The position numbers were made by a program. Below, piece by piece: positions 9,001 to 12,000 of a stretch of DNA of 64,000 nt. Each line of letters opens with the position of its first letter. Position 1 is the first letter of the stretch. The DNA is from a virus. Its lineage: Duplodnaviria; Heunggongvirae; Uroviricota; Caudoviricetes. The stretch is from the IMG/VR virus record IMGVR_UViG_2913112809_000002; one strand, 5' to 3'.

Positions 9001-12000
9001 ACCGGCGAGGACAGAACCGAACTTTTTCGCTCCTGCATCATCCACACTGAAGCCAAGCGAGACGAGGAAATCTTTAATAGTCTCGGCGTTCATTATCCTC
9101 TCTCCATTTTTCTACCCGGACATCGTTGTCCTCGCACATATCAAGGTAGTCATTAAGAAGCGCGATGCGACAGAGATCTACCGCACCACTGTTAAGATCT
9201 TTCTGGTCAATATGGAAGGCAAGCGCCGGACGAAGAATAAAATCTTCACCACCCGGCAGGCTATTGAAGGTTATTCCGCTGGCGGGATGGGCGTCTCTTT
9301 GGTAGGGAGTCCTTGCAAAAAATTTCCCAGCGAATCGGCGACCACCCGCGCCACCAGCTGAAGCATGACCAGCAAATCAATATCATCAAACATCAGTTCG
9401 CCCTGGGTAAATACCGGCACCCATCCATCCATATGACGCCGCGACACCACCGCAAGACAGGGATGAATAATCGCATCGGTGTCATCTTCGGTCAGGGAAG
9501 ACAGTTCCTCAGCGATACGCGGGAGCATGGTTTCAAACACCGGTTTTAACTGCTCGAATTTCACGGTGTCGATTTTGCCGTCAGCAGGCAAACGGGAGCG
9601 AATGCTCCCGAAATCTGACATCATTCCTGCCAGTACCGGCAGAAGTTTGCGGGTCACTTTCAGCTGGTCAAAAACGCTGAGTTTTGCCACGCGATATTTC
9701 ACGCCTTTGATTTCGAATTCCATGTATTAAAACTCCCCGAGAACCTGGTCAATCTTGCCGCAGTCAAACACCCACGGCATCGTATTACCGGTTTTAGCGT
9801 TGGCGTTATCCGGTTGTTTCTGGAACGCAACACTGCGTGCCGTGATGATGTCGCCGCTGACCTTGTTGCGGATCACGATAACGTTATTCCCCCATGTGGC
9901 AGAAGACTGGCTCTGTGCGTTATACGCCAGCGACAATTTTTTATTTGTCGGTGATGTCTTCAGAAGGTTAACGGTAATCGTCCCGCTTTTATCTGCATGG
10001 AGACTGTGCATCACTTCGCCATCAGCACCGATGGTCATGGTGTTTTTAGGACCGCCCATCGCAACCACAATCCCCTCTTCAGAACTTGCCGAACCGTACC
10101 CGAGGTCAATCGAACCGGTCGGCCCGGTCAGCGTCGCAGTGACATCCATAAAAGAATAGGTAGACATTCACTTCCCCTTAGCGAACAACGTTAATCTGTA
10201 CGTCAGCGTAATGAACCGCGCCTGCAAGTTTTATTGCAGCCTGAATCACCGGAGCCTTACGGGCTTCACGCTCTGATTGTGCCTGTTCATCCAGCGGCTG
10301 GGCGTATACGTAATAACCTTTGGGCAGCGTGTCACCTGATGACAACTGACCAAGGTCGCCCCCGTTCCATACGCCCGGAGCAATCAGTCCATTCTGAACG
10401 GCCTGATCCAGTGATTTTTCAACATTTGATAACAGTCGGGTAATACCGGCTTCAGTCTGGGGAACTTTCGTGGTGCTGGTATAAAGCAGGTTATAGAGGT
10501 TGGTCTGCACATAATTCTGTAACCAGTCCAGGCCGTGGCGTTCATCAAAGAAATCGCCGTTAGCCATCACTCCCTGCTGGAGGATAGCTGTATCATTCTG
10601 GTAGTACACGAACACATTGCAGTTTTTTGCATCAAGTGCCGATGCCTGGCTGACTGTCAGTGTTTCATACCCGACACCCGGCTCCTGCTTAAACTTGAGC
10701 GTAATCGCGGTATTACTGCCATTGAAATTAACCGTGAATGCCCGGCCAAATGCAGATAACGCAGCGTATTTATTACCCGATGAATACTGAATAAAACTGC
10801 GTGAATATCCGGCGGTTTTCAGTTTTGATGCCAAATCATCGCTGGATGCAGTCTGCAGGCATTTCTCATCGCTTGTCGTAATCGCCAGAATACGGCTTAC
10901 AGAAGAGGATTCGATCGCCGCAGCCACTTTCAGCCAGTCTGCATCCGGAATATCTTCATCGCCTGCAATCCCCAGCCCATACCATGAAGTATAATCGAGC
11001 ATGGCATTCACAGCCTGCTCCAGCGTCTCAGGCGTGGCCTGTTCGCTGTCTCCCTTCGTTTTCACCCAACGACCAACAAAAACCTCCTGAGGTTTCGGTG
11101 ATTGTGAGAAAAACACCTGCGCAGCTTTATATTCTGGTGATTCCACGCCAAAATCTTTTCCAATATCTTCCGCCGCAGAATAACGACGAATGCGCTCACT
11201 TACCGGAATGATTGTGGACGGGCCGAGAATGAGTAATGCACCAAAATTTCGCCCTGATGCTGCACGCGGCGACATGATCACATCAACATTAACAACGTTT
11301 GATACAGGCAAGCCCTGTGCCATAGCTTAATCTCCGAAAAAGATGACTGGTGCTTCCACCAGCGATTTAATACCGTACTCGCGCACAACCTTCCGGCGCA
11401 GACGCACCGTCATATCGTAGCGGCGGACCCATTGCTGATTAATAAGTTCAGGGAAGGGAGTCAGACCTGTGTAATCGCCAAGAGACAGCCCCAGCGCATT
11501 CAGTGCTGCGTTGTTCTGCGGTACAGATATACCGTCACGAAACCGGGACGCATACACCATCCCCGCCGGACCATAAAACGAAGCCATACACTCAATCGTT
11601 TCATGCCGCCAGAGCTGAGAGCCATCATCGGTCTGTCTGGTGAATGCCGGACTGTCATCACCTGACCATCCGATAACCCCAAACGCACACCAGTTCGTTT
11701 CAGCCGGTAGCAGTGGCGGTTGCTCTTTCTGCCAGCGCGGACGAACCATCCCGGCAGACAGACCGGAAACGTTACGCATCCACTGGCTTAACAGCCTGTC
11801 GAGCGCTTCGTCATAATCCGGATCGCCACTGGTTGGTATCAGCCATCCGCGCTCTGTGCTGGTGTTATTGCTCAACCGGAATTCCCCCATCAAACGGCAG
11901 CAACTCACAATGCGCCTGAACGAATCCGGCACCATACGCTGTATACGGGTCGACGAAAGTCACACGATAATCACGGCCCTGATACGTCACGATATCGGCA

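Follow-up and report, generated by a model that had tools for sequence, protein, structure and literature searches.

A probable G/GT-type programmed -1 frameshift joins a Phage_TAC_15 tail assembly chaperone to a DUF6889 extension in a myovirus-like prophage

Introduction

Does the apparently empty gap between the tail assembly chaperone gene and the tape measure gene of a tailed phage encode protein, and if so, how do ribosomes enter it? The question is raised by segment A, a locus on the minus strand of a 64,000-nucleotide (nt) stretch of viral DNA (Caudoviricetes; IMG/VR record IMGVR_UViG_2913112809_000002), the whole of which is called the window here. A preliminary description of its sequence had proposed that a slippery heptamer close to the end of the chaperone gene shifts ribosomes into the -1 frame, which then runs through the gap. 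Chaperone frameshifts of long-tailed phages have been known since lambda G/GT and P2 E/E+E', and a conserved class of them was reportedly described by Xu, Hendrix and Duda in 2004. In the G/GT class, two proteins with a common N-terminus are made at a fixed and low ratio of long to short form, both being needed for tail assembly and both being absent from virions. In this class the tape measure is bound by the G part and the tail tube protein by the T part.

The comparisons set out below point, with a probability of about 0.88, to a programmed -1 ribosomal frameshift of the G/GT type in a myovirus-like prophage (DUF3383 sheath, KPP10-type tube), located in its tail chaperone gene, and it is highly probable that the -1 open reading frame (ORF) is expressed as a C-terminal extension of the chaperone by -1 recoding at the tract described here. 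The match to the conserved chaperone frameshift of long-tailed phages, as first proposed, is upheld by gene order, a start-less -1 ORF, selection, slip-site constraint and the annotation of homologues. The elements at issue are as follows.

9271..9723, minus strand: tail assembly chaperone gene (the 'G' equivalent), 0 frame, 150 amino acids; Pfam PF21822 Phage_TAC_15, E=9.6e-32
9316..9328, minus strand: slippery tract of 13 nt, GGGAAATTTTTTG, defined by sequence and phase
9074..9322, minus strand: -1 frame extension (the 'T' equivalent), defined by translation, Pfam PF21829 DUF6889, PHROG 4364 and the ratio of nonsynonymous to synonymous polymorphism (pN/pS)
9094..9270, minus strand: apparent intergenic gap of 177 nt, coding in the -1 frame only, with no ORF listed there
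7105..9093, minus strand: tape measure protein gene, 662 amino acids; weak matches to PhageMin_Tail (Pfam) and to TIGR01760 tape_meas, and tape measure in Salmonella phage SEN34

The slip tract and the reading frame beyond it

In the frame of the chaperone gene, the minus strand reads CTG GGA AAT TTT TTG CAA and ends in GAA TAA, the TAA stop lying at 9273-9271. TTTTTTG occupies 9322-9316, phased T_TTT_TTG. The stop codon follows after 42 nt, a distance of 45 nt when the count runs to the last base of the stop, and the coordinates originally given for a U UUU UUG heptamer (9316-9322, minus strand, 45 nt before the chaperone stop) were all correct. The tract GGGAAATTTTTTG holds three overlapping heptamers of the form X_XXY_YYZ, namely G_GGA_AAT (9328-9322), A_AAT_TTT (9325-9319) and T_TTT_TTG (9322-9316), all of them in phase, and in-phase slippery heptamers are one of the features by which the class is recognized. 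Of the 130 ORFs of at least 100 amino acids in the window, four have an in-phase heptamer within their last 120 nt together with a -1 frame that stays open for at least 40 codons past the stop. These four are the chaperone gene itself (9723-9271), a lambda-type chaperone gene at 58.5 kilobases (kb), ORF 63388-62984, which has no Pfam match, and an ORF nested in an alternate frame of the tape-measure gene.

In the -1 frame, an open stretch of 100 codons begins upstream of the heptamer and closes with a TAA at 9076-9074. Counted from the first base of the tape-measure ATG (9093-9091), this stop is 19 nt further on, and the ATG itself falls within the final codons of the -1 ORF; the proposed opening across the 177-nt gap to just past the tape measure start is thus confirmed. 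After the shift, 80 codons would be read from GCA at 9316-9314, base 9316 being used twice; the predicted fusion, of about 216 amino acids, consists of chaperone residues 1-136 followed by 80 residues if the shift comes after TTG has been decoded, and a slip on either upstream heptamer would alter one residue of it, from Leu to Phe. As in known members of the class, the downstream ORF is shifted by -1 relative to the upstream one, whose end it overlaps, and it lacks a credible site for initiation, the first ATG, GTG or TTG being found at codon 61 of the 82-codon stretch that starts at the T-run. When the stretch was put through 5000 dinucleotide shuffles, a frame open for 82 codons arose 34 times (0.7%).

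The extension matches Pfam PF21829 DUF6889 above the curated cut-off (E=3.8e-12) and also PHROG 4364, and the chaperone body matches PHROG 1688 'tail assembly chaperone' (E=4e-62) in addition to Phage_TAC_15; NCBIfam holds no model for a fusion of the two. AlphaFold2, run on an alignment of 25 sequences, models the domain encoded by the extension (the T domain) as a monomer with a disordered stretch over its first 12 residues and helices at 25-33, 38-43 and 48-79, with a mean predicted local distance difference test score (pLDDT) of 80 and values that reach about 90 or more across most of residues 21-70. The last 14 residues of the chaperone past the slip site (9274-9315, minus strand) are QGLPTKETPIPPAE.

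Selection and conservation across relatives

A one-genome-per-species scan gave 80 loci, nearly all from Enterobacterales, with chaperones 37-87% identical to the query. The T-run was read in 85 loci (79 of the genome loci, all but L086, together with the window and five annotated phage records), and in 82 of these T_TTT_TTN is in phase, with a run that begins at codon position 3 and comprises six T's or, in four loci, seven. GGGAAA stands before the T-run in 69 of the in-phase loci. The three exceptions are two truncated chaperone genes (L013 and L084) and L051, whose run reads AATATTTTG.

Across the codons GGA, AAT, TTT and TTG, synonymous diversity is 0.17, 0.00, 0.00 and 0.03, respectively, against values mostly of 0.4-0.7 elsewhere in the chaperone gene and about 0.5 at its other Phe codons; at the slip site, Phe is never encoded by TTC and Leu never by any of its other five codons. 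An extended upstream element was considered as well, with 40 nt identical in the closest relatives, but it was rejected, as synonymous diversity there is normal (0.26-0.63) over the 80 loci. The T-run is the most conserved part of the tract and is pinned as the slip position in three loci (L052, L075 and L078), where a -1-frame stop (TAG, TAA or TGA) abuts it on the 5' side, so that the shift can occur only on the T-run.

The extension was followed in 84 loci with a T-run, comprising the 82 in-phase loci, an Escherichia coli RefSeq locus and Klebsiella phage Mulock; by source, these are the window, five phage records, one RefSeq chromosome of E. coli and 77 other genome loci. It spans 77-84 codons in 82 of the 84 and ends 3-19 nt after the tape-measure start, 58 of them at +10; in L043 and L079 it is cut short by a premature stop. 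From locus to locus, the first canonical start of this frame falls anywhere between codon 9 and codon 61, or is missing altogether. Mean pairwise differences in the gap amount to 0.30, 0.24 and 0.54 at -1-frame codon positions 1, 2 and 3, and pN/pS is 0.40 in the -1 frame, 1.40 in the 0 frame and 1.33 in the +1 frame; on average a locus has 3.95 stops in the gap in the 0 frame and 5.38 in the +1 frame. The 48-nt overlap just after the heptamer gives a similar picture, with pN/pS of 0.59 in the -1 frame, 1.22 in the 0 frame and 1.30 in the +1 frame, and the -1 frame is thus the only one of the three to show purifying selection in either region. Given ratios of 1.2-1.4 in the other frames, the last 14 residues of the chaperone's own frame look unconstrained, and QGLPTKETPIPPAE looks like a run-off tail whose sequence may be dictated by the overlapping -1 frame. 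The claim that a frameshift accounts for the gap at 9094-9270 is supported: by codon-position differences, pN/pS and the DUF6889 match, the gap is coding in the -1 frame only. As expected of the class, diverged relatives keep both the arrangement and the slip site, and selection acts on the -1 ORF as coding sequence.

L051 (Salmonella enterica strain s1, CP191473.1, about 1880-1900) is the sole intact relative with an interrupted T-run, GGGAAATATTTTG. G_GGA_AAT is in phase there and is the only heptamer remaining, as it also is in Bordetella phage IFTN9, and the -1 ORF is open as far as the tape-measure start, which suggests that this upstream heptamer may serve by itself.

Distant phages and single-ORF relatives

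A tblastn search of a phage collection returned 40 records, and seven distant ones, with chaperones 27-48% identical, were examined. At the residues LG[NP]F they carry the following heptamers.

Elizabethkingia phage EKP1: all three, as in the window
Bordetella phage IFTN9: G_GGA_AAT only
Acinetobacter phage Ab105-1phi: G_GGA_AAT and A_AAT_TTT
Burkholderia phages BgManors32 and Magia: C_CCT_TTT
Ralstonia phage PY059YO380: G_GGT_TTT and T_TTT_TTC
Edwardsiella phage ZHS: none that is canonical

The -1 ORF is kept in seven of seven, with the motif LPGGEDW...LDLADIALMND, and in all of them its end comes within a few bases of where the next downstream annotated gene begins; in ZHS that gene, labelled portal protein in the record, was taken as the tape measure from its position. 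The slip site thus varies in sequence and keeps its place and phase, which fits tandem tRNA slippage and not slippage of a polymerase on a homopolymer.

Two records assigned to Bacteroidota carry the enterobacterial type of module: Chryseobacterium sp. 18061 (L017, CACSKA010000001.1) and Elizabethkingia phage EKP1 (L089). Their chaperones are 69% and 48% identical, respectively, T_TTT_TTG is identical in both, and the full 13-nt tract is present in EKP1; there may be a question of host assignment or contamination in both cases.

When the T-domain profile was searched against 1.8 billion cluster representatives, most matches were fragments of 40-80 amino acids, and several were proteins of 191-209 amino acids with DUF6889 at the C-terminus. 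An N-terminal Phage_TAC_15 and a DUF6889 share one continuous ORF in P0244, P0245 and P0257 (with the chaperone match above or near threshold), P0193 has a C-terminal DUF6889 with a weak, sub-threshold chaperone match, and in P0199, with DUF6889 at its C-terminus, Phage_TAC_15 was undetected. A close relative of 213 amino acids, P0001, likewise has both domains in one ORF and reads ...GNFFAYT... From these sequences, it appears that the Phage_TAC_15 and DUF6889 parts can share one polypeptide. If the single ORFs are real, the phages concerned need another route to the short form, or manage without it. Another protein, P0151 (201 amino acids), combines an N-terminal NAD_binding_7 domain (siroheme-synthase-like) with a DUF6889 C-terminus identical to the allele of Escherichia phage vB_EcoM-689R2, and probably reflects either gene calling across the junction of a prophage or a faulty assembly.

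RNA structure and other signals

The search for a downstream stimulatory structure, which the preliminary description had suggested as a check, found none in the window, in the 78 loci or in the 12-sequence consensus described below, and no conserved RNA structure lies 5-9 nt after the heptamer, as it would in a stimulated site of the dnaX or IS type, where the slippery heptamer is accompanied by a downstream hairpin or pseudoknot, an upstream Shine-Dalgarno-like element or both. The sole conserved pairing, of GGGA with UCCC, encloses the slip site and shows no covariation. By inspection only, the upstream GGGTGG is a poor match to a Shine-Dalgarno sequence, and no promoter-like site was found in the gap (9094-9270). 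A terminator-like hairpin lies inside the T ORF at 9162-9189 (minus strand), with 12 pairs followed by GCTTCTTAAT.

Proposed mechanism and points that weigh against it

According to the favoured reading, most ribosomes would translate 9723-9271 and release the 150-residue chaperone, while a minority would slip back one base on G_GGA_AAT_TTT_TTG, the likeliest event being tandem slippage of tRNA-Phe and tRNA-Leu on T_TTT_TTG at 9322-9316. The slipped ribosomes would then read the -1 frame through the apparent gap to the TAA at 9076-9074, giving a product of about 216 amino acids with chaperone residues 1-136, a flexible linker and a small helical DUF6889 domain. By analogy with lambda gpG and gpGT, the shared N-terminal part may coat the tape measure protein and the extension may recruit the tube protein, with the low efficiency of an unstimulated slip site setting the ratio of short to long form. 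The comparisons show the sequence anatomy, its conservation, and constraint both on the -1 frame as coding sequence and on the nucleotides of the slip site, while production of the long form, slippage by the ribosome in place of RNA polymerase, and the binding partner of the T domain are inferred.

Several results weigh against this reading. TTTTTTG is not rare, with 23 copies in the window against 17.9 +/- 4.2 expected. Downstream structure is lacking at every level of comparison: the fold of the window gives z = -1.09, the 78 loci folded against shuffles give a mean z of -0.56, and the consensus fold of 12 diverse sequences reaches -2.4 kcal/mol with neither covariation nor a compensatory pair, so that, with no stimulatory element, frameshift efficiency is probably low. 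The exact slip position is not universal, since L051, with its interrupted T-run (AATATTTTG), and Edwardsiella phage ZHS, with no canonical heptamer, both keep an open -1 ORF. A Foldseek comparison of the T-domain model with PDB and BFVD gave no significant neighbour from which a function could be confirmed. Some of the single-ORF database proteins could be homopolymer sequencing errors, the NFFA of P0001 being what seven T's would be expected to give. The homopolymer of six T's, extended to seven in four relatives, is also compatible with slippage of RNA polymerase, whose product would be almost identical to that of a ribosomal frameshift.

Alternative explanations

In that last possibility, RNA polymerase would add one U at the run of six T's and the edited mRNA would be read continuously (...N F F A R...). 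With products so alike, comparative sequence data cannot separate ribosomal from polymerase slippage; the single-ORF protein P0001, reading GNFFA as one extra T would give, is in keeping with it. Efficient slippage by bacterial RNA polymerase, though, generally needs runs of about 8-9 or more, and the run here is of 6-7 T's at a constant codon phase. The arrangement persists in relatives whose heptamers at these codons are not homopolymeric (G_GGA_AAT alone, C_CCT_TTT), the run is broken in L051, and the constraint covers the exact X_XXY_YYZ phase, including the upstream GGA, a phase to which ribosomes are sensitive and polymerase is not. For the P2 site, which has the identical heptamer, a translational frameshift has been described (PMC3091744). 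Slippage of the polymerase is accordingly considered quite unlikely, and on the pattern of sequence constraint the ribosomal event is favoured.

It is very unlikely that the -1 ORF forms a small gene in its own right, with translation beginning at a non-canonical codon (ATA, CTG or similar) near or in the end of the chaperone gene, despite its standing in the databases: a 66-residue coding sequence (CDS) of its own was called by the Prokaryotic Genome Annotation Pipeline (PGAP) in a 99.6%-identical E. coli chromosome, many entries are standalone proteins of 45-78 amino acids, and both PHROG 4364 and Pfam DUF6889 model the extension as a separate unit. Independent initiation was rejected because the codon at which PGAP begins the gene is an ATA that overlaps the chaperone stop, the annotated starts are scattered over alignment columns and cut conserved sequence, and the window offers no ATG, GTG or TTG in the -1 frame before codon 61 of 82. 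An independent gene would also have to accommodate purifying selection that is already present in the -1 frame of the overlap directly after the T-run (pN/pS 0.59), and it leaves unexplained both the lost synonymous variation at GGA AAT TTT TTG and the single ORFs with both domains in distant lineages. The chances that the gap is merely a non-coding spacer, regulatory region or attenuator, with the open -1 frame and heptamer coincidental, are negligible. Such a reading could appeal to the lack of any over-representation of TTTTTTG in the window, to the hairpin that scores as terminator-like at 9189-9162 (minus strand), and to the absence of annotation in four of six phage records inspected; it is effectively refuted by the codon-position, pN/pS and locus-conservation results, as a frame of a length open in 0.7% of shuffles is kept in 82 of 84 loci, and both the third-position variation and the pN/pS of 0.40 are specific to the -1 frame. 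The DUF6889 match above the curated threshold and the confident structure model of the extension also speak against it, and the hairpin is within chance (2 terminator-like sites in the scanned region against 0.9 expected from shuffles) and falls within a cassette only about 60% identical to the closest phage relative.

Gene neighbourhood and the mosaic extension

Upstream of the chaperone gene, the tail genes on the minus strand are as follows.

10178..11323, minus strand: tail sheath-like protein gene; Pfam PF11863 DUF3383, E=1.2e-100, and 'tail sheath' in the SEN34 annotation
9727..10167, minus strand: tail tube protein gene, directly upstream of the chaperone gene; Pfam PF11681 KPP10_Orf10, E=8.8e-61

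The order along the minus strand is sheath (DUF3383), tube (KPP10_Orf10), chaperone (Phage_TAC_15), -1 ORF and tape measure, and it is identical in SEN34, YP3, 689R2 and Mulock. The upstream ORF is thus a tail assembly chaperone gene located between the tube and tape-measure genes, as is typical of the class, and a GGAG motif at 9105-9102 precedes the tape-measure start. The nearest phages are four Escherichia vB_EcoM phages, Yersinia phage YP3, Salmonella phage SEN34 (genus Brunovirus) and Klebsiella prophage-derived phages. A megablast with a 901-bp query over this region matched 350 of 5426 complete E. coli genomes, 21 of which cover at least 80% of it.

Comparison with one of these phages shows the extension to be mosaic.

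9113..9315, minus strand: exchanged T cassette, defined by megablast segments and a 60-nt identity profile against Escherichia phage vB_EcoM-689R2

Identity between the window and 689R2 stands at 98% over 11899-9315, falls to about 60% across 9315-9113 and is 98-100% from 9112, and from this drop and recovery it follows that the T module was exchanged as a cassette. The 5' joint (9316/9315) is the exact 3' end of the heptamer, and the 3' joint lies in the conserved region of ...EKWREDNER and the tape-measure ribosome-binding site. Elsewhere, the T allele of the window is paired with quite different chaperone bodies, for instance in L018-L020 and L067, and the invariant slip tract may be a joint for recombination. 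A more speculative and rather doubtful proposal is that the tract acts as a conserved 13-nt 'slippery ramp', G_GGA_AAT_TTT_TTG, whose successive chances to slip would give the needed level of frameshifting with no RNA stimulator, and at the same time as a recombination joint for T-domain cassettes. The synonymous constraint on GGA (0.17), the presence of one, two or three heptamers in relatives and the mosaic junction at 9316/9315 are compatible with it.

Database annotation

The way in which databases treat the extension is uneven. In the E. coli RefSeq chromosome NZ_CM136170.1 (L086), 99.6% identical to the window, PGAP calls the extension as a standalone 'DUF6889 family protein' CDS of 66 amino acids at L086 1727-1927, with ATA as its start codon and an overlap with the chaperone stop, and standalone calls in general start at many different alignment columns, cutting into conserved sequence. 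Older nr entries (among P0123, P0129, P0130 and P0141) are named 'lytic transglycosylase', a name probably transferred from the adjacent tape-measure gene. Among the six phage records inspected, the gap is unannotated in four, one is without any annotation, and Mulock annotates the frameshift product. GenBank gives a joined CDS, 'tape measure chaperone frameshift product', for Mulock, which has the same GGGAAATTTTTTG, and for Magia, so curators had already predicted a frameshift in this gene family; the genome announcement of Mulock does not mention it, and a literature search found no paper mentioning DUF6889 or Phage_TAC_15.

In this prophage family the gap most probably encodes the C-terminal domain of a long chaperone isoform, which makes Pfam DUF6889 and PHROG 4364 the T domain of Phage_TAC_15 chaperones and not a gene in itself. 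The practical value lies in annotation: the standalone 'DUF6889 family protein' entries in RefSeq and the 'lytic transglycosylase' entries in nr should become joined frameshift CDSs. The concept itself is unchanged, as the chaperone frameshift of long-tailed phages is long known and homologues are annotated in two phage records.

Comparison with known systems

The roles and mechanism of lambda gpG and gpGT have been described, with G to GT made at about 30:1 and a low efficiency being needed (PMC5009743), with which the lack of a downstream structure in segment A agrees. Like segment A, lambda has two overlapping ORFs between the major tail (tube) and tape-measure genes, the second of them start-less, in the -1 frame and ending at the tape-measure start, and no stimulatory RNA structure is needed. 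Unlike lambda, the phage studied here is contractile-tailed, its chaperone is Phage_TAC_15 and not Phage_TAC_2, its tract is GGGAAATTTTTTG and not GGGAAAG, and its extension is of 80 amino acids (DUF6889).

A lambda-type site is found in the same window as a separate observation. Within 58548-59386 (plus strand), an ORF of 140 amino acids matches Pfam Phage_TAC_2 (lambda gpG; E=4e-52). An in-phase G_GGA_AAG at 58946-58952 precedes the stop of this ORF by 22 nt, beyond which the -1 frame continues for another 138 codons; given this chaperone and heptamer, the window also carries a lambdoid tail module.

The P2 E/E+E' frameshift uses TTTTTTG, with no downstream structure reported (PMC3091744, citing Christie et al. 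2002), and P2 thus shares with segment A the identical heptamer, a myovirus tail, a site between the tube and tape-measure genes and the lack of a reported downstream structure. The sizes differ, with 91 amino acids for E and 142 for E+E' against 150 and about 216 (the predicted long form) here. A Pfam scan of the chaperone and extension gave only PF21822 and PF21829, with no homology to the P2 E/E' family, and as far as the sequences indicate, the resemblance is one of heptamer and layout only. In Pakpunavirus and other Vandenendeviridae and in Andersonviridae, a chaperone -1 frameshift has been proposed, with a conserved poly-T (GTTTTT) at the 3' end of the short ORF and a -1 frame that runs uninterrupted through a region usually annotated as intergenic or as a hypothetical gene (PMC12846349). 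These myoviruses resemble segment A in motif and layout and differ in being lytic phages of Pseudomonas and other phages with larger genomes.

The true homologues of the segment A pair are found in Klebsiella phage Mulock (CPT_Mulock_014/015) and Burkholderia phage Magia (CPT_Magia_015/016), whose joined-CDS annotation is itself a prediction. The Mulock chaperone is 58% identical, and its -1 ORF ends 10 nt into the tape-measure gene; unlike segment A, Magia uses C_CCT_TTT, and the T cassette of the window is another allele than that of Mulock. Set beside these systems, the site is a routine member of the conserved class of tail-chaperone frameshifts, mildly unusual only in its triple-heptamer tract and in the cassette junction at the slip site.

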